64,000 nt of DNA, from the NCBI GenBank assembly GCA_028821575.1, contig JAPPFW010000073.1:11434-75433 (forward strand), given 5' to 3'. The stretch comes from a bacterium. GTDB taxonomy: Bacteria; Actinomycetota; Acidimicrobiia; Spongiisociales; Spongiisociaceae. The notes under the pieces were generated by a model that saw nothing but the letters and a program-made list of their open reading frames with translations, searched no databases and was not told where the DNA came from. Positions 11,144-45,544 of the stretch are shown here, piece after piece (the first letter of the stretch is position 1; each line of letters opens with the position of its first letter). Both the position numbers and the translations under genes were made by a program.

Positions 11144-12300
11144 CCGCCCAACGGTCGGAGCATGCTCCGGGAGATGATGTGGCGCTGAATCTCGGAGGTG
11201 CCGTCCCAGATGCGGTCGACCCTGGTATCACGCCACAGGCGCTCCAGCGGAAGCTCGTCCATGAGGCCCATGCCTCCGAAGATCTGGATCGCTTCGTCGG
11301 TGACGAACTGGCACATCTCGCTGGCGTACAGCTTGGCCATCGCCGCGTCCGTGTCGCTCATGGTGCCCTCCCCTTCCTTCCAAGCGGCTCGGAGCGTGAG
11401 CAACTCGGCGGCCTCGTAGCGGGTCTGCATGTCCGCCAGCTTGAAGGACACCCCCTGGAACTTGCCGATCTGCTTACCGAACTGGGTGCGGTCCACCGCC
11501 CACGCGGTGGCCAGCCGTATGGCTCGCCGGGCCCTGCCGAGGCACACGGCTGCGACTTGGAGCCGGGTGGAGCCCAGCCACAGGTTGGCAACCGCGAAAC
11601 CCTGGTGCTCCTCTCCGAGGATCGCCGACTCCTGAACGCGGCAACCGTCGAAGTTCAGGATGAAGTTGTGGTAGCCGCGGTTGGACACCGCCCTGTATCC
11701 GGGTCGTACCTCGAAACCCGGGGTACCGATGTCCACCAGGAAGGCGGTGATCAGCTTGCGCGGACCCCTAGGGCCGGCCTCCTCGCCGGTGGCGGCGAAC
11801 AGGATCACGTAGTCGGCGAGGTCGGCGTGGCTGATGAAGTGCTTGGTGCCGTTGATCGTATAACCGGTCCCGTCGGGGACGGCGCTGCACTTCATACCCC
11901 GGAGGTCGGAACCCGCGTCCGGTTCGCTCATCGCCAGACATTCGACGCGGTCGCCCCGGATGGTCGGGAGCAGGTAGCGCTCGATCTGGTCCCCCTTGCA
12001 GGCCCGGAGGATGTTGGAAGGCCGGGCGACTATGTACTGGAGCGCGTAGGAAGCTGCGCCCAGTTCCCGCTCCACGAGCGCAAGAGTGACGGGATCCAGG
12101 CCGGCTCCACCGTACTCGACGGGCATGTTGGCGGCGTATATGCCGGCGGTAATGGCCCGTGACCTGATCTGGTCGACCAACTCGGGTGGTACCAGGCCGG
12201 AGCGGTCCACCTCCTCCTCGTAGGGGAAGAGTTCCCGCTCGGTGAACTCGCAGGCGACGTCCACGATCAGGCGCTGCTCGCCGGTGAGCCCGAAGTTCAT
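11140..12300 (-). CDS. acyl-CoA dehydrogenase (by context gamma-butyrobetainyl-CoA dehydrogenase-like)
   Basis: 386 aa with typical ACAD architecture (MSEPDAGSD, ...GGMG...ERLWRD.RV..I.DGTSEIQ). Confidence 0.85.
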   Translation of the reverse strand: MNFGLTGEQRLIVDVACEFTERELFPYEEEVDRSGLVPPELVDQIRSRAITAGIYAANMPVEYGGAGLDPVTLALVERELGAASYALQYIVARPSNILRACKGDQIERYLLPTIRGDRVECLAMSEPDAGSDLRGMKCSAVPDGTGYTINGTKHFISHADLADYVILFAATGEEAGPRGPRKLITAFLVDIGTPGFEVRPGYRAVSNRGYHNFILNFDGCRVQESAILGEEHQGFAVANLWLGSTRLQVAAVCLGRARRAIRLATAWAVDRTQFGKQIGKFQGVSFKLADMQTRYEAAELLTLRAAWKEGEGTMSDTDAAMAKLYASEMCQFVTDEAIQIFGGMGLMDELPLERLWRDTRVDRIWDGTSEIQRHIISRSMLRPLGG

Positions 12301-17631: not shown

Positions 17632-19197
17632 TTACCAGCGGGTGCCCTGGCCGGTTACCTCTTCGACGGGGAGCCTTATCGGGTAGCGGCTGCGGATCCA
17701 CTCGTCCTGGGCGCGGGTCACGTGGCCGGGGAAGTGGGTGCGCATGACCTTTCCTACGTGCTCATGGGCACGTTCGGCGGCGTTGGTGGCGCCCAGATCC
17801 CGCCAGTCGTCGGGGCTGTTGCGGTCACCGATCAGCGGGTACACGTACTCCCTCTGCATCAGGTGGAGGGTCTGGGCGCTTCCGAGGAAGTGGCCCGGGC
17901 CGGAGATCGTCTCCTGGATCACCTGGGCTGACAACGTGGAGTCATCGATGTCGATCCCCCGTATGGTGCGGTTGACCGACCCCAGCATGTCGTTGTCTAT
18001 CACCAGGGCTTCCAGCGAGAAGCCGAGCAGGGAAGCGAGCATTCCCGCCGATTCGTACACGAGGTTGGCCCCGGCCTGGCCCGCTAGGAGGGTGGTGATG
18101 CCCTTCTCGTAGCCGGCCTGGTTGTCGGGGAGCTTGGAGTCGGCCATACCGGCCGCCACTCCGGAGGGAAGGCCCAGCCAGTTGGCCAGCTGTGCGGCAG
18201 CCGCGTTCAGCACGGCTTCCTCTCCCGAGCCGCCGCTCATGGCGCCGGTACGCAGGTCAGACACGAACGGCCACAAGCCCATCACGCACGGATGGCCCGG
18301 ACTGATCAGATTCACGCTGGTGAGAGCGGCCAGGCACTCGGCGAGGGCTTGGACCAGCGAACCTCCCAGGGCGGCGGGGGAGGTGGCGCCGGCCTGGCCG
18401 GCCGAGAGCAGGTTGATGGGCATACCGGTCCGTATCTGGGCCACCATGCACTCGGTGGACTCGTAGGCGAAACGCAGGGGAGGTACCACGAAAGTGTTAT
18501 TGGCCGCTACGAAAGGACGGCGGCGGAACTCGCCTTCACCGCCCAGCACATAGTCGTACATCTCGACTACGTCGTAGACATGTTGCGGTCGGAAGAAGGA
18601 GGTTCCCTGCGGCTTGTCGGTGCCCATCATCGTCGCGTAGGCGGTGTTGATGTCTACCTCGCGGGACTCTTCAAGATCACGGGTGACGATGGTCCGCACG
18701 AAGAAGTGAATGTGTTCGAGGGTGTCGATCAGCCGAGCGGCGTCGTAGAGGTCGAGTGTGGTTGTGGGCCGGAACGTCCGGTCGTGGAAGTCAAGCATCA
18801 GGACGGCGGCGCCCGCCGTGCCGAAGTGCACCTTGGTGTCGGACAATTCGATGCTCTTGTCCTCGTCGATCCCGTGCCAGACCCAGGACTTGGCCGCTAC
18901 CTCTTCGACGATCCGCTGCACGACCGACCTCGGGTAGTGGAGCCTCCCCTTGTCGTCGAGGTGGCCTCCGGCTTCCGTGACCGCCTCCACGAACTCCGGG
19001 ATCGGGTCACCCATGCCGAGCTGTTCGATCAGATCGAGGGCCGTGTCGTACACCCGTTGCATGTCGGACTCGGTCAGCGGGGAGTAGGCGCCGCCTTTGA
19101 AGCCCGGACGGACGGCGCGCTCGTCGGCGGTGGGTCCTGCCGCCCGAGCCGCAACGCGCGCAGCCCGGCCTCCTGCTCTCCTGCGTCGGCGGGCCAT
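17632..19197 (-). CDS. MttB-superfamily (trimethylamine methyltransferase family) protein, non-pyrrolysine type. Quaternary-amine:corrinoid methyltransferase candidate
   Basis: 521 aa uninterrupted (no in-frame TAG). Arg-rich N-terminus (RRRRAGGRAARVAARAA) followed by ...LTESDMQRVYDTALDLIEQLG, typical of the family. Its start codon lies 1 nt after the stop of the upstream DMGDH-like gene. Confidence 0.8.
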   Translation of the reverse strand: MARRRRRAGGRAARVAARAAGPTADERAVRPGFKGGAYSPLTESDMQRVYDTALDLIEQLGMGDPIPEFVEAVTEAGGHLDDKGRLHYPRSVVQRIVEEVAAKSWVWHGIDEDKSIELSDTKVHFGTAGAAVLMLDFHDRTFRPTTTLDLYDAARLIDTLEHIHFFVRTIVTRDLEESREVDINTAYATMMGTDKPQGTSFFRPQHVYDVVEMYDYVLGGEGEFRRRPFVAANNTFVVPPLRFAYESTECMVAQIRTGMPINLLSAGQAGATSPAALGGSLVQALAECLAALTSVNLISPGHPCVMGLWPFVSDLRTGAMSGGSGEEAVLNAAAAQLANWLGLPSGVAAGMADSKLPDNQAGYEKGITTLLAGQAGANLVYESAGMLASLLGFSLEALVIDNDMLGSVNRTIRGIDIDDSTLSAQVIQETISGPGHFLGSAQTLHLMQREYVYPLIGDRNSPDDWRDLGATNAAERAHEHVGKVMRTHFPGHVTRAQDEWIRSRYPIRLPVEEVTGQGTRW

Positions 19198-37198: not shown

Positions 37199-37258
37199 TA
37201 GTACACAGCGGGTTAGCATGGTCCTTTGAAAGTACCTAGAAGCTCTCGCGGAGTTGCT

Positions 37259-39028
37259 ATGAGCGTCACCGCCGGTTTTCCCTCCGATCTGGAGATCGCG
37301 CAAGCCGCCACCCCTAGACCCATCGCCGAGATCGCCGACGCGATCGGCATCCGACCCGACGAGTTGATTCCGTACGGCTCCACCAAGGCCAAGGTCCACT
37401 TGGACATCCTCAAACGAGTTAGGAGTCGTCCGAGGGGCAAGTACGTGGATGTTACGGCTGTCACGCCCACCCCTCTCGGTGAGGGAAAGACCACCACGAC
37501 CATAGGCCTGGTGCAGGGTTTGGGCCTCCTGGGGAAGCGGCCCATCGCCACCATCCGGCAACCCTCCATGGGTCCCACCTTCGGGATCAAGGGGGGCGCG
37601 GCCGGAGGTGGTCACAGCCAAGTCATTCCCATGGATGAGTTCAACCTGCACCTCACGGGCGACATGCACGCGATCAGCGTCGCCCACAACCTGGTGGCTG
37701 CCGCCATCGACGCTCGCTGGTATCACGAGCGGAGACTCACCGACGGTCAGTTGGAGGCGCTCGGCATCGACCGGGTGAACATAGACATCTACCAGACCCG
37801 CTGGCGCCGGGTGGTAGATGTCAACGATCGGGCTCTACGCAACGTCGTCGTGGGGTTGGGTGGTCGATTCGACGGTCGGCCGCGGGAGACCGGCTACGAC
37901 ATCACGGTGGCCTCGGAGCTGATGGCGATACTGGCCCTCACCGACGGCGCCGACTATGCCTCGGCGCTGCGGAACCTGCGGCGCCGCTGCGCTCGGGTGG
38001 TCATTGGCAATGACCAGAGTGGTAGACCCATCACTCTGGAGGATCTCGGGGTCGCCGGAGCGGTGACGGTCCTGATGCGGGACACCCTGCACCCGACCTT
38101 GATGCAGACCCTCGAGGGCCAGGCTGCCTTCGTGCACGCCGGACCCTTCGCCAACATCGCGCACGGCAATTCCTCGATCCTGGCCGACCGGGTCGCCCTG
38201 CAACTGGGCGACTACGTGATCACCGAGTCCGGATTCGGTTCTGACATGGGAATGGAGAAGTTCTTCGACATCAAGTGCCGCGTCTCCGGACTGGTTCCCG
38301 ACGCGGTGGTGATGGTGGCAACCATCCGGGCCTTGAAGACGCACGGTGGTGGTCCCAAAGTGGTTCCGGGCCGGCCCCTCGCCGAAGCGTATACCGGCGA
38401 GAATCTGCCGTTGCTCGAGGCGGGCCTCACGAACCTGGCTGCACACATCGACGGCGCTCGCCGATTCGGTGTCCGGGTGGTGGTGGTCGTCAACGCGTTC
38501 CCCACCGATACCGCCAACGAGATCGAGACCGTAAGGAGGGCCGCGCTCGATGCGGGCGCGGCCGCGGCGGTTACCTCCACCCACTGGGCCGATGGGGGTA
38601 GGGGAGCGACCGAGCTTGCACGAGCTGTCATCGACGCTTGCGAGGAGCCCACCGACTTCCGGTTCCTCTACCCGCTTGAGGAGTCGATCAAGGGCAAGAT
38701 CGAAGCCATTGCCACCCGGCTCTACGGTGCCGATGGGGTGGAGTATTCGCCGAGGGCCGAGCGTGACATAGCCGGTTACGAGAAGGACGGCTACGGCAAC
38801 CTGCCTGTATGCATGGCGAAGACCCCGCTCTCGCTCTCCCACGATCCAAACCTGAAAGGCCGGCCCACCGGGTTCCGCCTTCCTGTTCGCGAGGTGCGTG
38901 CATCGGTGGGCGCCGGGTTCCTGGTTCCCATCCTCGGGGCGATCAACACCATGCCGGGCCTAGGCACCAAGCCTGCCTACATGAACGTCGACATCGACGA
39001 GGACGGCAAGATTGTCGGGTTGTTCTGA
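37259..39028 (+). CDS. fhs: formate--tetrahydrofolate ligase
   Basis: N-terminus MSVTAGFPSDLEIAQAA... and the nucleotide-binding motif TPTPLGEGKTTTTIGL are canonical FTHFS. The ATG at 37259 is preferred over the tracked 37226 by alignment, from memory, with Moorella FTHFS. Confidence 0.9.
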   Translation: MSVTAGFPSDLEIAQAATPRPIAEIADAIGIRPDELIPYGSTKAKVHLDILKRVRSRPRGKYVDVTAVTPTPLGEGKTTTTIGLVQGLGLLGKRPIATIRQPSMGPTFGIKGGAAGGGHSQVIPMDEFNLHLTGDMHAISVAHNLVAAAIDARWYHERRLTDGQLEALGIDRVNIDIYQTRWRRVVDVNDRALRNVVVGLGGRFDGRPRETGYDITVASELMAILALTDGADYASALRNLRRRCARVVIGNDQSGRPITLEDLGVAGAVTVLMRDTLHPTLMQTLEGQAAFVHAGPFANIAHGNSSILADRVALQLGDYVITESGFGSDMGMEKFFDIKCRVSGLVPDAVVMVATIRALKTHGGGPKVVPGRPLAEAYTGENLPLLEAGLTNLAAHIDGARRFGVRVVVVVNAFPTDTANEIETVRRAALDAGAAAAVTSTHWADGGRGATELARAVIDACEEPTDFRFLYPLEESIKGKIEAIATRLYGADGVEYSPRAERDIAGYEKDGYGNLPVCMAKTPLSLSHDPNLKGRPTGFRLPVREVRASVGAGFLVPILGAINTMPGLGTKPAYMNVDIDEDGKIVGLF

Positions 39029-39437
39029 CGCGTCCGCCCTAGCCCCAGGTGAATCGGTCGTATCGATCCGGTATCTGGTGGTCGACTGCATCGACCTCGA
39101 TCGGTCCGCCGGGTTCTGGGGTCCGCTGCTCGGCTTGGCGCCCGAGCGGCGGCTCGACAACTACCTGTTCATGGGCTCGGCGCTTCCGGGGTGCGAGTTG
39201 GTCCTGCAGCGCGTGGACCGGGTGACGGCGGACAAGAGCCCCATCCACTTCGATGTCCAGGGGTCCAATACGGAGGATTTCGACAAGATCGTGGCCCGAG
39301 CGGAGCGGCTCGGTGGCAAAATCGTGGCAACGGTTACCGAGGACGAGTACGAATTGGCTGTCATGGCCGATCCCGACGGCAACGAGTTCTGCGTGAACCG
39401 GGTGCCGTCGGGCCTTCCCGTCGACCGGGATGCGTAG
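39012..39437 (+). CDS. VOC/glyoxalase-family protein
   Basis: About 140 aa. IRYLVVDCIDLDRSAGFWGPLLGL...ADPDGNEFCV is a typical glyoxalase/bleomycin-resistance fold signature. The start is uncertain: TTG at 39012 overlaps the fhs end, and there is no in-frame ATG. Confidence 0.6.
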   Translation: MSGCSDASALAPGESVVSIRYLVVDCIDLDRSAGFWGPLLGLAPERRLDNYLFMGSALPGCELVLQRVDRVTADKSPIHFDVQGSNTEDFDKIVARAERLGGKIVATVTEDEYELAVMADPDGNEFCVNRVPSGLPVDRDA

Positions 39438-39484
39438 TCGACGGAGTACAAACGCTCACGAGAGCGAGGAAAGGAGGTGATCGA

Positions 39485-41368
39485 ATGCCGAAAGTAAAGC
39501 TTCCCCGCCTTACCACCCCGTACGTGAGGCGTAATGGCGAGTTGGTGCCGACCGACTGGGACGAAGCGCTGACCGTCGCCGCGTCCGGGCTTGCTGCTCA
39601 CGCCGGACGTTCGTACGGGATGTTCTCGTGTTCAAAGGCGACCAACGAGATGAACTTCCTCGCCCAGAAGTTCTCGCGATTGGTGATGGGGTCCAACAAC
39701 ATCGACTCGTGCAACCGCACCTGACACGCTCCCTCCGTCGCCGGTCTGGCGGCAGTGCTGGGAGTAGGAGGGGGGACATCCTCCTACCAGGAAATCGAGA
39801 CCACCGACGCGATCCTCCTATGGGGATCCAACGCACGCGAGGCGCACCCGATCTTCTTCCACCACCTCATGAAGGGAGTACGCAACGGCGCCACCCTGTA
39901 CACGGTCGATCCCCGACGGACCACTTCTGCCATGTGGGCGGATGTCTGGCTGGGCATCGACGTGGGTTCCGACATAGCGCTGGCCAACACCCTCGGGCGG
40001 GAGATCATCGTCTCCGGACTGCACAACCGGGCCTTCATCGACCATGCCACCTTCGGCTTCGACGACTACGCCGAGGCAGTTGAACCCTGGACTCTGGAGC
40101 GGGGCGCCGAGGTCACCGGCGTTCCGGCCGCGGTCATCCGCCGGATGGCTCACGACTACGCAACCGCTGAGCAGGCGCAGATATGTTGGACCCTGGGGAT
40201 CACGGAGCACCACAACGCAACCGACAACGTCCTGGCGCTTATCAACCTGGCGCTGCTTACGGGCCATGTGGGCCGTTACGGCTCGGGCCTGGTGCCGATC
40301 AGAGGCCAGAACAACGTCCAGGGCGGGGGTGACATGGGCGCATTGCCCAACAAGCTTCCGGGCTTCCAGGATGTCGCCGACCCAGTCTCAAGAGGCAAGT
40401 TCGAGGCGCTCTGGGGCAGGTCCGTACCCCAACAACCGGGCAAGCACATCTCCTTGATGCTCGAGGCCATGGAGACCGGGGAGATCACCGCGCTATACGT
40501 GATCGGCGAGAACCCGGCCCAGTCCGAGGCCCGGTCCGACCATGTGCGAGGGATCCTGTCGGGGCTCGAATTCATGCTCGTCCAGGACATGTTCATGACG
40601 AGGACCGCCGAGTTGGCCGACGTGGTGTTTCCCGCCGCGGCCGGATGGGCGGAGTCGGAGGGCACGGTCACCTCATCGGAGAGGCGGGTTCAGCGAGTTC
40701 GTAAGGCGCTCGACCCCCCCGGATCCGCCAGGGACGATCTCGACATCATCTCGGCCCTCGCTGACCAGATGGGCCACGGCTGGGGATACCCGACCGCCGA
40801 GGAGTTGTGGGACGAGTTGAGAAGCCTCTCACCGCTGCACGCAGGCATGTCGTACCGGCGTCTGGATGAGTCGGGTGGTCTTCAGTGGCCCTGTCCGGAC
40901 GAGGATCATCCGGGGACCCTGTTCCTCCATGGCGGCCTCTGGGAGGACCCCATGCCCCGCGATCAGGTCCCGTTCATGCCCACCCCGTGGGTCCCGCCGG
41001 TTGACGAGTTGACAGACGACTATCCGATCCGGCTCACCACAGGTCGCCGTCTCGACTCCTACAACACCGGCGTCCAGTCCGGCGGGTACGGCTCCCCGCT
41101 GCGCGCCAAGGTGGCCGTCGAGGTCGCTCCGGAAGACGGTGCGACCCTCGGGTTGTCGGAGGGTCAGCAGGTCAGCGTCACCTCACGGCGGGGATCGATC
41201 GACGTACCTGTGTACTTCCACCGCTCACTCCGGCCTGGCTTGGCCTTCATGGCCGTGCACGATCCCGACGAAGCCGATGTGAACCTGCTAACTGTCGATG
41301 TCTGGGATCCAAAGTCGGGCACGGCGGAGTTCAAGGCAACTGCGGTCCGCATCGGACCCGTGGTCTAG
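39485..41368 (+). CDS. fdhA: formate dehydrogenase catalytic (molybdopterin) subunit, selenocysteine-containing (TGA at 39722-39724 read as Sec), lacking the N-terminal Fe-S part
   Basis: ATG at 39485 preceded by AAAGGAGGTGA. ...NNIDSCNRT-TGA-HAPSVAGL... is colinear with E. coli FdhF ...NNVDCCARV-U-HGPSVAGL... The downstream ORF 39755-41368 is in the same frame (offset 33 nt) and continues the MopB fold (RGQNNVQGGGDMGALP). A SECIS-like hairpin follows the TGA. Confidence 0.85.
39725..39764 (+). other. bacterial SECIS-like hairpin immediately 3' of the in-frame UGA
   Basis: Upper stem GUCGCC (39737-39742) pairs with GGCGGC (39748-39753) with one G-U. Apical loop GGUCU (39743-39747). Lower stem CUCCC (39729-33) pairs with GGGAG (39760-64). 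Same codon register (V-A-G-L) and same GGUCU apex as the E. coli fdhF SECIS as I recall it, with compensatory changes in both stem arms. Confidence 0.7.
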
Positions 41369-41406: not shown

Positions 41407-43188
41407 ATGTCCGCGGTGCCGACCCCTGCCGAAAGGGAGGCGGTGGATGACCTGCTCGGACCTCCCGGCTCGTCGTGGGAGGGTGGCACGATCCGGTCCG
41501 GGGATCTCCGTGTCGCCTTCGGCGGTTACCGGCGCTCGGTCGAGAACCGCCACATGCTGCTACCGGCACTACACGCCGTGCAGGCCCGGGTCGGGTGGAT
41601 AAGCAAGGGCGCCCTTAACTACGTGTGCGAACGCCTGGGCGTTCCCCCCGCCGAGGCGTACGGAGTAGCGGGCTTCTACGCACTGCTGGCCCTCGAGGAG
41701 CGTCCTCCCAGGGTGGCCCATGTGTGTGATGACGTGGCCTGTGGCCCCGTCGGCGGAGTGGCCATGCTCGAGGAACTGGGAGACCGTCCGGATGTTCATG
41801 CGAGCCCCTGTCTGGGACAGTGTGATCGGGCGCCGGCGGTGTTCGTCCAGCGGGCCCCAGAGGGGGATACCGTTCTCGTAGGGGCGACACCCGACCAGGT
41901 CATGGAGGCGTTGGGAGGTGATGCTCCGCACCAACCGGAGGTGGCGGTACCGCAGTCGGGGGACCCCTCCCTTCGCTTGCTCCGCCGGGTCGGTGTGGTC
42001 AACCCGACCTCTCTGGACGAATACCGAGCTACCGGCGGGTACCAAGCCCTGCGCAAGGCCTTGGAGCTTGGTTCCGATGGGGTCATTGCCGAGATAAGGA
42101 CGGCCAACCTGCGGGGGCGGGGGGGTGCGGCCTTCCCGATGGGCATCAAGTGGGACGGAGTCGCCCGCTCCCCGGTGAATCCCCGCTACCTCATCTGCAA
42201 CGCGGACGAGTCCGAGCCGGGAACCTTCAAGGATCGGGTGCTGATGGAAGGTGATCCATTCGCACTGATCGAGTCGATGACCATTGCCGGCTTGACGATC
42301 GGTGCGGAGCTTGGCTTCCTCTACATCCGTGCCGAGTACCCCCTGGCCATGGCCTGTCTCGAAGAGGCCGCCGCCGCGGCGCGTGCTGCGGGTCTGCTGG
42401 GTGAGGACGTGGCCGGTTCGGGCCGGTCGTTCGATATCGAGATTCGCCGCGGGGGTGGCGCGTACATTTGCGGCGAGGAGACCGCCCTGATGAACTCGAT
42501 CGAGGGTAAGCGGGGCGAGCCCCGCAACAAGCCGCCTTTCCCCACCCAGGTCGGCCTCTTCGGACGCCCGACGGTGATCAACAACGTGGAGACGCTGGTC
42601 AACGTGCTCGACATCGTGCTCACAGGGGGCGATGCCTTCGCAAGGATCGGGACCGCGGAGTCGACCGGACCGAAGCTGTTCTGCCTGGCGGGAGCCGTGG
42701 CGCGGCCCGGCGTCTACGAGGTGGACTTCGGAGAGACGCTGGGTGGTCTGATCGAACTGGCCGGAGGGATCACCGGGACGGGAGAACTCGGCGCGGTGAT
42801 GCTGGGAGGAGCGGCCGGGGTCTTCGTGGGGGAGGAGCATCTCGACATGCCCCTTACATTCGAGGACTCCCGGGTCCGCAACGCCACCCTTGGTTCCGGC
42901 GTGATCCTTGTCTTCGACCATGCCACCGACTTCCGCTCTGTAGCCCGCCGGATCGCCCGATTCTTCCGGGACGAGTCGTGCGGTCAGTGCGTACCGTGCC
43001 GGGTCGGTACGGTACGCCAGGAGGAGTTGCTGGCCCGGCACCTGGGCGGCGGGCCGTTCGAGGAGGAACTCTTCGATGATATAGCCCGGGTGATGATGGA
43101 CGCTTCCATTTGCGGGCTCGGGCACACCGCCTCGACCGCCATCCGGTCGGCGGTCGACCTGGGGCTGTTGGGGAACGGTCATGGCTGA
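41407..43188 (+). CDS. NAD-reducing diaphorase subunit: NuoE-like [2Fe-2S] domain fused to NuoF-like FMN/NAD/[4Fe-4S] domain (FdsG-FdsB type)
   Basis: 593 aa. N-terminal thioredoxin-like 2Fe-2S part (CDDVAC...CLGQCDRAP). Then GRGGAAFP, GGGAYICGEETAL and ESCGQCVPCR motifs typical of NuoF/HoxF. Confidence 0.85.
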   Translation: MSAVPTPAEREAVDDLLGPPGSSWEGGTIRSGDLRVAFGGYRRSVENRHMLLPALHAVQARVGWISKGALNYVCERLGVPPAEAYGVAGFYALLALEERPPRVAHVCDDVACGPVGGVAMLEELGDRPDVHASPCLGQCDRAPAVFVQRAPEGDTVLVGATPDQVMEALGGDAPHQPEVAVPQSGDPSLRLLRRVGVVNPTSLDEYRATGGYQALRKALELGSDGVIAEIRTANLRGRGGAAFPMGIKWDGVARSPVNPRYLICNADESEPGTFKDRVLMEGDPFALIESMTIAGLTIGAELGFLYIRAEYPLAMACLEEAAAAARAAGLLGEDVAGSGRSFDIEIRRGGGAYICGEETALMNSIEGKRGEPRNKPPFPTQVGLFGRPTVINNVETLVNVLDIVLTGGDAFARIGTAESTGPKLFCLAGAVARPGVYEVDFGETLGGLIELAGGITGTGELGAVMLGGAAGVFVGEEHLDMPLTFEDSRVRNATLGSGVILVFDHATDFRSVARRIARFFRDESCGQCVPCRVGTVRQEELLARHLGGGPFEEELFDDIARVMMDASICGLGHTASTAIRSAVDLGLLGNGHG

Positions 43189-44164
43189 AGTCACGCTCAG
43201 CATCGACGGGCGCCCTGTGTCGGTACCGCCCGGGTCCACCATCCTCGATGCCTGCCGGGCGATGGGCAGCGATCAACCCACCCTGTGCTACCTCGACAAC
43301 CTCACGCCGGTCAACGTATGCCGCGTGTGCGTGGTGGAGGTGGAGGGAAGCCGCATCCTCGTCCCGTCCTGCAGCCGGATGGCCGAGCAGGGAATGGTCG
43401 TGTCCACGGACACCGAGCGGGTGCGCCACTCCCGGAGGATGGTCTACGAGTTTCTCGCTTCGTCGGTGGATCTCGGTCTGGTAGACGAGCCGACCGTTCG
43501 GTGGATGACCGAATACGGGTGCGATGCGGATCGCTACGGATCTCCGGCGGAGCCGGTGGAGGATCGTGACCAACGGGTGGCCGGTCATCATCACGTGGGT
43601 GACGGGGCCGAGGCCGAGACAGTTCACCAGCCGGTCAAGGTGGACAACGAACTGTACGTGCGGGACTACTCCCGGTGCATCCTCTGCTACAAGTGCGTCG
43701 AGGCCTGTGGCGAGGACGCCCAGAACACCTTCGCCATAGCGGTGGCGGGCCGCGGCTTCGATGCCCGGATCTCAACCGAGTACGACACAGGGTTGACCGA
43801 GTCGGCCTGCGTGTTCTGTGGCAACTGCATCGGTGTCTGCCCCACCGGCGCATTGATGTTCCGGAGCGAATTCGAATTGCGCCGAGCCGGCCTGTGGAAG
43901 GAGGACCGCCAGGCCGTCACGCGCACCGTCTGCTCCTACTGCGGCGTCGGGTGCAACCTGGAACTGCACGTCCAGGACAACCGGATAGTGAAGGTGACCT
44001 CACCGATCGACCACTCGGTGACGTCCGGCCACCTGTGCATCAAGGGCCGTTTCGGCTACGAGTACGTCCAGGAACTGGGGGACCTCGCGGTTACTCCCAT
44101 CGACGAGGTCCTCAGGAGGGCGCGGGTCGCCGACTCGGGAAAGTCGGGGCGCGACACCGGATGA
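43181..44164 (+). CDS. Fe-S subunit equal to the N-terminal part of a NuoG/FdsA-type formate dehydrogenase alpha chain, ending with the MopB Fe4S4 sub-domain
   Basis: 327 aa. 2Fe-2S ferredoxin start (LSIDGRPVSVPPGSTILDA...C..L..V..CRVCVVEV), two 4Fe-4S ferredoxin motifs (CILCYKCVEAC, CVFCGNCIGVCP), then TVCSYCGVGCNLELHV...GHLCIKGRFGY. That last stretch aligns with the first roughly 60 residues of E. coli FdhF. Confidence 0.85.
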   Translation: MAEVTLSIDGRPVSVPPGSTILDACRAMGSDQPTLCYLDNLTPVNVCRVCVVEVEGSRILVPSCSRMAEQGMVVSTDTERVRHSRRMVYEFLASSVDLGLVDEPTVRWMTEYGCDADRYGSPAEPVEDRDQRVAGHHHVGDGAEAETVHQPVKVDNELYVRDYSRCILCYKCVEACGEDAQNTFAIAVAGRGFDARISTEYDTGLTESACVFCGNCIGVCPTGALMFRSEFELRRAGLWKEDRQAVTRTVCSYCGVGCNLELHVQDNRIVKVTSPIDHSVTSGHLCIKGRFGYEYVQELGDLAVTPIDEVLRRARVADSGKSGRDTG

Positions 44165-44206: not shown

Positions 44207-45544
44207 GTGCCCGCAGCCAGTGCGGGTCTTGACACTCACCTACCAGATTCCATCCCGCTGATGCTCCGCTCGGGGCGGTTCCCTTCCGCGTCGGCGGACG
44301 AGCAGTTAATCCCTCCTGCAGCCGCCGTGGCGCTGTTCGGGGTTGTCATCGTGGTCACGCACGGCATGGGCAACAGCCTCGTCCCGGCCTTGCTACCGCG
44401 GATCTCGGAGTCCTTCCAGGCGGGATACGGCGTTCTCGGGCTGACCGTTGCCGCCGGCCTTCTCTCCTACGGCGCGGGGGCGGTGGTCGGGATAAGGGTC
44501 GTAGACCGAGTCCCTTCACGGGGCTTGCTCGTGCTGTGCCTACTAGTCTGCGGCGCCGGGCTGCTGGCCGTCTCGGTGTCCGGGTCGCCGGCAACGATGG
44601 CTGTATGCGCCGTAGTCATCGGCTTGTCCTCGCCCATCAGTTGGTCCGTTTCCGTCTACCTCATCAGCCGGGTGGTCCGATCCGGTGCCCACGGCAGGGT
44701 GCTGGCCGTTGCCGCGGCCGGCGCCGGGGTGGGCAACGGCGTGAACGGTGTCTTCGTGCAGCTACTGACCGCGCCGGACCAGTGGAGGTGGGCCTTCGTG
44801 ATCGCAGGAGGCTTGGCGGTCGGCGCGGCGGTTGCGACACGGCTGGTTCTCAGGCACCCGATCGAGCCGCCGTCGAGGGTCGATGCCGGCCGGCAGCGTC
44901 GGATCTGGCGGCGGATATGGTCGGTACCCGCCGGTCGGCTCGTGCTCGGCTTGAGCATGGTGGCGGGCATCGGGACGTTCACGTTCGGCGGCTACATCTC
45001 CGAGATTGCGCTCGACGAACTTTCGGTGAGTTCCCCGGCGGCTGCCGTCCCGTGGTGGCTGGCCTCGGGGGTCGGAGTGTCGGCGGCCTTTCTGGCAGGT
45101 CTGAAGAGCGACCGGGGTTCCCCGGTCGGCGTCATGTCGATCACATCCCTCACCTACGCCGCCGCACTGACGGTACTGGCGCTCACCTGGTCCTACCCGG
45201 CTCTCTTGATAGCCACCTTCGGGTTCGCCGTGTTCAACTTCCCGATCTGGGGACTGTTCGGGCTGGTCGCCCACCGGGGTCTCCCACCGGAGTTGGCGGT
45301 CCGGTCCGTGTCGGGGGGTCTGGCCCTGGGTGCTTGCTCGGCGATGTGCGGTGTAACCGCAGCCGGATGGTGGATCGATCGGACCGGTAGCTTTCGCGGG
45401 CCTGCGATCCTGCTGGCAGTGATGATCGCGACTGTCGCGATATGGCTGGGTTCCAAGTACCGGACCGAATCGACGCCCCACTCGCAAGATCCTGCGAGAG
45501 GTGGCGACAAACCTGCTTACATCATCGATGGTGGCACCGGATAA
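44207..45544 (+). CDS. MFS transporter
   Basis: 445-aa ORF with about 12 hydrophobic segments. Start uncertain (an alternative ATG at 44261 gives MLRSGRF...). Substrate unknown. Its position after the FDH genes makes formate or oxalate-type transport only a guess. Confidence 0.7.
   Translation: MPAASAGLDTHLPDSIPLMLRSGRFPSASADEQLIPPAAAVALFGVVIVVTHGMGNSLVPALLPRISESFQAGYGVLGLTVAAGLLSYGAGAVVGIRVVDRVPSRGLLVLCLLVCGAGLLAVSVSGSPATMAVCAVVIGLSSPISWSVSVYLISRVVRSGAHGRVLAVAAAGAGVGNGVNGVFVQLLTAPDQWRWAFVIAGGLAVGAAVATRLVLRHPIEPPSRVDAGRQRRIWRRIWSVPAGRLVLGLSMVAGIGTFTFGGYISEIALDELSVSSPAAAVPWWLASGVGVSAAFLAGLKSDRGSPVGVMSITSLTYAAALTVLALTWSYPALLIATFGFAVFNFPIWGLFGLVAHRGLPPELAVRSVSGGLALGACSAMCGVTAAGWWIDRTGSFRGPAILLAVMIATVAIWLGSKYRTESTPHSQDPARGGDKPAYIIDGGTG

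Follow-up and report, generated by a model that had tools for sequence, protein, structure and literature searches.

The locus considered here raises the question of whether two open reading frames (ORFs) that are listed separately are in fact a single gene, whose internal TGA triplet is read as selenocysteine (Sec) rather than as a stop. The window, that is, the whole stretch of 64,000 nucleotides (nt) that was analyzed, covers positions 11,434 to 75,433 of the forward strand of contig JAPPFW010000073.1 (assembly GCA_028821575.1), which belongs to a metagenome-assembled genome (MAG) of the Acidimicrobiia family Spongiisociaceae. In our analysis, the best explanation of the locus is that the TGA at 39722-39724 is very probably decoded as Sec. 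The gene, fdhA, resembles that for the catalytic subunit FdhA3 of the formate dehydrogenase (FDH) named FDH3 in Actinomycetospora chiangmaiensis DSM 45062 (Rohwerder et al. 2020, PMC7176365). The gene model contains the following features.

39485..41368, forward strand: fdhA, predicted catalytic molybdenum- or tungsten-bis-pterin subunit, FdhA3-like, 627 amino acids, about 68 kDa, Sec at residue 80
39722..39724, forward strand: predicted UGA selenocysteine codon (U80), directly before the codon for His81; falls on Sec140 of FdhF in the alignment; TGA in 81 of 81 aligned sequences
39470..39477, forward strand: putative Shine-Dalgarno sequence AAAGGAGG, 7 nt upstream of the ATG, from reading of the sequence

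Inspection of the ORF list (bacterial code) and the raw sequence confirmed the coordinates and peptide strings of the original prediction, in which the two ORFs, 39191-39724 and 39755-41368 on the forward strand, share one frame. The raw sequence at the junction reads AAC CGC ACC TGA CAC GCT CCC TCC GTC GCC GGT CTG GCG GCA GTG, and the 30 nt between the ORFs, from CAC to GCA, encode HAPSVAGLAA. Once TGA is read as U from the ATG at 39485, there are 627 open codons with a single TGA at codon 80, and the frame ends with the TAG at 41366-41368; the frame is open across the TGA, so that the ORF list does split one gene in two, as had been proposed. The true start is predicted to be 39485 and not the GTG at 39191, because the relatives begin at the same Met and several of them have stop codons shortly upstream. 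By phmmer comparison with solved structures, residues 4-626 of the fdhA product align with residues 57-688 of Escherichia coli FdhF (1aa6, E 1.5e-134), and residue 80 sits on the X (Sec140) of the FdhF stretch NNVDCCARVxHGPSVAGL. The junction is thus colinear with the FdhF active site, also as proposed, and the TGA falls exactly on Sec140. The catalytic residues are kept as well: His81 is the counterpart of His141 of FdhF, and Arg273, within PIRGQNNVQG, is that of Arg333. The predicted tryptic peptide carrying Sec80 is T-U-HAPSVAGLAAVLGVGGGTSSYQEIETTDAILLWGSNAR.

The continuity of this alignment bears on a simpler view of the locus, according to which UGA terminates translation and the products are a 79-amino-acid peptide and a separate 537-amino-acid protein beginning at the GTG at 39755. 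Both the ORF list and the public annotations depict the locus in this way. However, it would leave the invariant HAPSVAGLA(A), including the catalytic His, untranslated and yet conserved as protein, and the 537-amino-acid product would be devoid of both the metal ligand and His81. In addition, there is no Shine-Dalgarno sequence upstream of 39755, and the alignment with FdhF runs over the junction without interruption. We consider two separate products to be extremely improbable, and decoding of the TGA as Sec remains the preferred reading.

The conservation of the TGA was assessed in a panel of 41 relatives, drawn from the genus, family and order of the source genome, and in a locus set comprising the best 80 loci (65-96% identity) obtained when a single genome of each species was scanned. 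An fdhA orthologue is present in 34 of the 41 relatives, with 66-96% identity, and every one of the 34 has the in-frame TGA in a frame that is otherwise open; exactly one TGA is found in 33 of them, and the remaining orthologue (G009) has two, together with a shorter match (residues 7-590). In the locus set, all 80 members have the TGA at this same codon, in the context DSCNRT-TGA-HAPSV. The nearest MAGs are titled Ca. Spongiisociaceae, and the labels of the set extend from Acidimicrobiia and Ca. Spongiisociaceae to Thermoleophilia, Nitriliruptoraceae, Vicinamibacteria and other Acidobacteriota, as well as some "Spirochaetia" and proteobacterial MAGs. The residues flanking the TGA form the most conserved part of the protein. 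No Cys variant (TGC or TGT) was found among the best 80 loci or the 34 orthologues in the order, nor was any relative found there that combines TGC or TGT with additional disruptions, the pattern that the original prediction had associated with a pseudogene.

These observations are difficult to reconcile with a nonsense mutation in a pseudogene, or with an assembly error. Such an origin of the TGA would agree with the behavior of gene callers, which treat the gene as broken, and with the source genome being a draft MAG; among the 120 best database homologues, 119 are deposited as 3' fragments of 490-558 amino acids, covering 78-86% of the query. That pattern, however, is characteristic of gene callers that end a gene model at a Sec codon. 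Moreover, the same TGA recurs in all of the loci and orthologues described above, closed genomes included, at 65-96% protein identity and without any other disruption of the frame, and it lies within the best-conserved part of the protein. Conservation effectively refutes a mutational or assembly origin, to which we assign next to no probability.

The sole full-length entry among the best 120 database matches (P0080) is a homologue of 645 amino acids on a metagenome contig of 2183 bases, with 65% identity and full coverage; it has Arg at the Sec position (CNRT-R-HAPSV), which could be a change of TGA to CGA or AGA, or an error.

If the TGA is read as Sec, a SECIS (selenocysteine insertion sequence) element is expected next to it. 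The hairpin that had been proposed 3' of the TGA, with the arms GUCGCC and GGCGGC, the loop GGUCU and a CUCCC/GGGAG base, was located at the following positions.

39737..39753, forward strand: predicted apical SECIS hairpin, 6-bp stem GUCGCC/GGCGGC with loop GGUCU (39743-39747); the same nucleotides also encode V85-A86-G87-L88-A89
39728..39765, forward strand: predicted extended SECIS, whose lower helix pairs GCUCCC (39728-39733) with GGGAGU (39760-39765); minimum free energy (MFE) structure of a 75-nt fold, and RNAalifold

The apical stem begins 12 nt past the UGA, within the coding region. Counted from the U of the UGA, the loop places G23 and U24, which we take to be the bases recognized by SelB, in the same register as in the E. 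coli fdhF sequence that was fetched for comparison. Of the claimed identity with fdhF, the register is confirmed, and the apex differs: E. coli has a 4-nt GGUC loop. Likewise, the arms had been described as compensatory relative to E. coli, and this was not borne out pair for pair; the E. coli loop is closed by an A-U pair, and its stem contains a bulged U.

On the other hand, the claim that the structure is conserved, which was made in opposition to a nonsense mutation, gains support from two comparisons among the relatives themselves, namely, compensatory changes and frozen synonymous sites. In an ungapped alignment of 81 sequences (alignment A1), pairing at the six apical positions is retained in 471 of 474 cells. 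One-sided changes turn a U-G pair into U-A in 19 sequences and a C-G pair into U-G in 19 sequences. Double compensatory changes replace G-C by A-U (L089 and L093) and C-G by G-C (L118), and in these cases the encoded residues change too. The covariation score is 0.160, compared with 0.125 in shuffled alignments; none of 500 shuffles reaches 0.160, and every slid register scores lower. The second comparison concerned synonymous entropy across 170 codons of 46 distinct sequences, in which 68 conserved codons are four- or six-fold degenerate. Their mean entropy is 1.42 bits (sd 0.51). Only five of them have 0 bits, and these are codons +5 to +9 (GTC GCC GGT CTG GCG), which correspond exactly to the hairpin, while the flanking codons vary freely. 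For the lower helix, the RNAalifold consensus retains columns 19-23/52-56, and the pair at columns 21/54 is UA in 45 sequences, CG in 8, GC in 3 and AU in 2, with 15 unpaired. This covariation is partial, and the support for the lower helix is weaker than that for the apical stem.

Decoding of UGA as Sec also requires a dedicated machinery, which the original prediction expected elsewhere in the genome. The genome to which the window belongs is a MAG of 100 contigs, 96% complete and with 5.7% estimated contamination, and all four components, selA, selB, selC and selD, are present in it according to profile scores and ARAGORN. selA (G000:C53:4661-5989, 431 bits) is directly followed by selB (C53:6001-7770, 317 bits), and both score above their cut-offs. 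The tRNA-Sec (C97:12486-12576, 77 bits) is typed by ARAGORN as SeC with the anticodon UCA. selD (G000:C78:225676-226599, reverse strand, 370 bits) is also above its cut-off and itself contains one in-frame TGA, in MRLTSFSPGAG-U-ASKLGP, at the active-site Cys/Sec position; selD is therefore a predicted second selenoprotein of this genome. Sec use had been called patchy in high-GC Gram-positive lineages, which does not apply to this order, where selB was detected in 39 of the 41 sampled genomes. Because selB is near-universal here, its co-occurrence with the TGA gene is uninformative.

The machinery, together with the hairpin, also distinguishes Sec insertion from a decoding of UGA80 by some other route, either near-cognate insertion of Trp or Cys or a lineage-wide reassignment of TGA. 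An open frame under a sense reading of TGA says nothing about the residue that is inserted, and to this extent such a route would account for the gene model equally. Nevertheless, TGA has not been reassigned, since it is the commonest stop in the window, ending 20 of its 32 long ORFs. The complete selABCD set lies in the same genome; the hairpin stands at the distance required by SelB and is under RNA-level selection; and in this family, the residue at this position, Sec or Cys, is the metal ligand. In addition, the related FDH3 system removed formate in a selenium-dependent manner (PMC7176365). Decoding by a non-Sec route thus appears very unlikely, and insertion of Sec is the reading that we follow below.

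Several points nevertheless weigh against Sec insertion and are best considered together. Both the insertion of selenium and the transcription of the gene are predictions. No SECIS was found in the window at the Rfam gathering score; at E <= 10, SECIS_3 reached 13.7 bits against a cut-off of 63 (39719-39777), and SECIS_2 gave no match. The Rfam SECIS models are narrow, and the control, E. coli fdhF, obtained 87.1 bits on SECIS_2. The upper stem is a perfect 6-bp stem without the bulged U found in E. coli. A GGUCU-type loop on a regular stem is present in the SECIS of Moorella thermoacetica fdhA, for which co-structures with SelB are available. In folding energy, the hairpin does not surpass shuffled sequences (z -0.33, -1.06 and -0.65; z -0.33 for the 75-nt fold). 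Since the genuine E. coli fdhF SECIS fails the same shuffle test (z +0.55), folding energy is an uninformative criterion here. In a 57-nt fold, the MFE structure favors a competing helix, CUCCCUCC (39729-39736) with GGAGGGGG (39767-39774), that displaces the apical hairpin; this helix uses the downstream Gly-Gly-Gly codons and is not kept in the relatives. Of the two checks originally suggested for the hairpin, covariation thus speaks for it and energy does not, and we regard the comparison of relatives, not the energy, as the decisive support for the predicted structure.

Three further points of this kind concern the genome and the protein. The Sec genes lie on contigs other than that of the window, in a draft MAG with the estimated contamination given above. 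G+C content is 64-66% in all four contigs, that is, those with Sec genes and that of the window. The worry about binning is removed by closed, single-contig genomes of the same genus, which were searched for selB and tRNA-Sec, because they carry both of these and the TGA-containing FDH gene together on one chromosome. One relative (G035, 98% complete) has the TGA gene and no selB match at E <= 1e-65. Finally, the fdhA product scores 610.8 bits on the profile TIGR01591, compared with a cut-off of 666.25, and is matched from profile position 52 onward. It stays under the cut-off because the start of the profile is matched by a different gene: when the whole genome was searched with TIGR01591, positions 1-51 fell on the iron-sulfur (Fe-S) gene at 43181-44164 and positions 51-672 on fdhA.

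This division of one profile over two genes reflects the architecture of the enzyme. Pfam detects only Molybdopterin (PF00384, 1.3e-63) and Molydop_binding (PF01568, 2.2e-21) in the fdhA protein, and no Molybdop_Fe4S4 (PF04879), which means that the N-terminal 4Fe-4S domain is not on this chain. Two genes follow.

41407..43188, forward strand: predicted NuoE-NuoF fusion, FdhB3-like diaphorase, 593 amino acids; Pfam 2Fe-2S_thioredx, Complex1_51K, SLBB and NADH_4Fe-4S
43181..44164, forward strand: predicted Fe-S subunit, FdhC3-like, 327 amino acids; Pfam Fer2_4 (2Fe-2S), two 4Fe-4S and a C-terminal Molybdop_Fe4S4

The fusion combines a 2Fe-2S cluster, a site for flavin mononucleotide (FMN) and nicotinamide adenine dinucleotide (NAD), and a 4Fe-4S cluster, and its matches in the Protein Data Bank are to NuoF, HydB and FdsB chains. 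The Molybdop_Fe4S4 domain of the Fe-S subunit is predicted to supply the cluster next to the pterin. When the two proteins are tiled on FdsA (6tg9), residues 2-298 of the Fe-S subunit cover FdsA 23-305, and residues 23-624 of the fdhA product cover FdsA 325-932. By this homology, an FdsA-type large subunit appears to be divided here between two genes, of which the catalytic one comes first. The NuoE/F fusion follows fdhA in 79 of the 80 loci, and the order fdhA, NuoE/F, Fe-S is found in all 69 related loci that are long enough to show it. In five loci (L060, L070, L092, L106 and L107), an insertion of 1.2-5.2 kb separates fdhA from the NuoE/F gene, with the order otherwise kept. The NuoE/F fusion and Fe-S genes overlap by 8 nt (43181-43188), and overlapping or abutting matches occur in 9 of the 69 related loci; the overlap suggests translational coupling of the two subunits.

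A profile search of the genome assembly revealed no other strong FDH alpha subunit and no metal-free NAD-dependent FDH above the cut-off, and the fdhA locus is the only recognizable formate dehydrogenase of this 96%-complete assembly. Of the identity originally proposed, a Sec formate dehydrogenase stands, whereas the FdhF- or FDH-H-like architecture has to be given up in favor of a three-subunit, NAD-linked type in which the catalytic chain has no N-terminal 4Fe-4S domain. The fdhA product is probably the catalytic subunit of such an enzyme, located in the cytoplasm.

From these elements, a mechanism of recoding and catalysis can be proposed. When the ribosome arrives at UGA80, SelB carrying Sec-tRNA(UCA) would bind the hairpin at 39737-39753, with its GGUCU loop, 12 nt downstream. 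Sec would then be inserted, and translation would proceed through the hairpin itself, which encodes V85-A89. In the folded enzyme, to judge from its homologues, Sec80 may ligate the molybdenum or tungsten atom of the bis-pterin cofactor, with His81 and Arg273 completing the active site. Electrons would leave through the 4Fe-4S cluster on a separate polypeptide, the Fe-S subunit (43181-44164), and would pass through further clusters of that subunit to the NuoE/F fusion (41407-43188), FMN and, finally, NAD+. Given that fhs, betaine transporters and an MttB-family methyltransferase are encoded in the vicinity, the reaction may constitute the last step of a tetrahydrofolate-linked methyl oxidation, in which formate is converted to CO2.

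The surroundings of the three genes include the following features.

37226..39028, forward strand: fhs, predicted formate-tetrahydrofolate ligase; Pfam FTHFS, 821 bits; the start may be downstream of 37226
39012..39437, forward strand: predicted VOC (vicinal oxygen chelate)/glyoxalase-like protein of 141 amino acids, between fhs and fdhA; Pfam Glyoxalase_6
44207..45544, forward strand: predicted major facilitator superfamily (MFS) transporter, 3' of the FDH genes; Pfam MFS_1; kept downstream in closer relatives

fhs lies at most 7 kb from fdhA in 37 of the 80 related loci, and, by Pfam, an ATPase of a glycine-betaine-type ABC (ATP-binding cassette) transporter is divergent from it. The VOC/glyoxalase-like gene overlaps the end of fhs by 17 nt, is confined to nearer relatives and has no NCBIfam match. 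An uninterrupted ORF for an MttB-family methyltransferase of 521 amino acids is located at 17632-19197 on the reverse strand. Gene content and homology suggest that the likely role of the FDH is the oxidation of formate released from 10-formyl-tetrahydrofolate in methyl-group catabolism, with NAD+ as the acceptor.

The MttB-family ORF also contains a match to the Rfam model PYLIS_3 (18048-18147, reverse strand), whose 64.4 bits are above the gathering score. Pyrrolysine recoding was rejected at this position, where the UAG of the model is AUG and the 521-amino-acid ORF is uninterrupted. The ORF probably encodes a non-pyrrolysine MttB homologue, and the match would reflect conservation of the coding sequence.

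Sec recoding of an internal TGA is of a well-known kind, and genes of this type are routinely cut in two by gene callers. The FDH3 type with Sec at U80 is already known, and the main value of the present analysis is the correction of a systematically truncated gene model. Since nearly all database entries of the family are 3' fragments, metabolic reconstructions of sponge-associated and marine Acidimicrobiia can be expected to miss the enzyme or call it a pseudogene, and to overlook a selenium requirement. The corrected model provides a complete formate-oxidizing module beside fhs and betaine uptake and points to selenium as a trace element that these symbionts probably require. It also draws attention to the 4Fe-4S cluster nearest to the metal site, which would be carried by a different polypeptide, an arrangement that has been noted in print without biochemical study.

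A wider proposal can be offered only tentatively, as somewhat less probable than its opposite: that Sec is irreplaceable in the split FDH3-type enzyme, that methyl (betaine) oxidation is strictly selenium dependent, and that RNA structure shapes the protein. In these sponge-associated Acidimicrobiia, the final step of betaine methyl oxidation would depend strictly on the supply of selenium if the absence of Cys variants and the status of this enzyme as the only FDH both hold. Near the active site, the SECIS couples residue changes, A86T occurring together with A89V; by such coupling, the RNA structure would shape the protein sequence.

The locus can be compared with several enzymes of known structure. 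As in E. coli FdhF (1aa6 and 1fdo), the aligned Sec is followed by His, and both the Mo-bis-pterin domains and the Arg within RGQNNVQG are retained. The SECIS of E. coli fdhF (Rfam RF01988) likewise lies within the coding region, with G23 and U24 equally far from the UGA. In contrast, FdhF consists of one polypeptide that includes an N-terminal 4Fe-4S domain and functions within the formate-hydrogen lyase complex. At the present locus, this domain is encoded by a separate gene, and the partner subunits resemble NuoE/F; the E. coli element also differs from the present one, which has a 5-nt loop and a perfect G+C-rich stem of 6 bp and scores below the Rfam thresholds. The FdsABG(D) enzymes of Rhodobacter capsulatus and Cupriavidus necator (6tg9 and 6tga) share the same domain set, a beta subunit related to the NuoF part and, presumably, the route of the electrons, which leads from the pterin over Fe-S clusters and FMN to NAD+. 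However, FdsA is one chain of 958 amino acids, FdsG and FdsB are separate proteins there and fused here, and the genes here begin with the catalytic part and end with the Fe-S part. The metal ligand of FdsA is Cys, not Sec (FDH3 supplement, PMC7176365). FDH1 of Methylorubrum extorquens AM1 (7vw6 and 7e5z) is similar in that its beta subunit is a NuoE/NuoF fusion and its alpha subunit is homologous to the fdhA and Fe-S proteins, but that alpha subunit is unsplit (989 amino acids), without Sec and tungsten-containing.

Among Actinobacteria, a 2026 study of mycobacteria describes the use of selABCD with FDH as the (often sole) selenoprotein and notes that UGA is the commonest stop, so that annotation misses the Sec FDH gene (PMC13449736). 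The mycobacterial FDH is a membrane-associated enzyme of the FdoG/FdnG type with about 1064 amino acids, unlike the cytoplasmic three-subunit enzyme predicted here. A literature search returned nothing on a selenocysteine FDH in Acidimicrobiia or on a split formate dehydrogenase, and the papers naming candidate genera are silent on the subject.

The closest counterpart is FDH3 of A. chiangmaiensis, a cytoplasmic enzyme of three subunits (PMC7176365). According to that report, FdhA3 has 640 amino acids and "U80", and its homology to FdsA is confined to the C-terminal metallopterin part of the latter; FdhB3 (614 amino acids) is a NuoE/NuoF fusion; and FdhC3 (316 amino acids) is "a separate but homologous" Fe-S protein. 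SECIS elements were predicted there by bSECISearch, all three subunits were found in the proteome, and the removal of formate needed selenite (PMC7176365). The present subunits, with 627, 593 and 327 amino acids compared with 640, 614 and 316, follow the same plan: an alpha subunit without an Fe-S domain and with Sec at U80, a beta subunit formed by a NuoE/NuoF fusion, and a separate gamma subunit homologous to the FdsA N-terminus, in an actinobacterial, cytoplasmic enzyme with NAD+ as the predicted acceptor. The two differ in their hosts, a sponge-associated Acidimicrobiia MAG here and a cultured Pseudonocardiales strain there, and in their context, which is fhs and betaine uptake here and 2-hydroxyisobutyrate degradation there. 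Matched by architecture, subunit sizes and Sec position as described for WP_084681743.1, WP_018332443.1 and WP_018332444.1, the locus appears to be of the FDH3 type.

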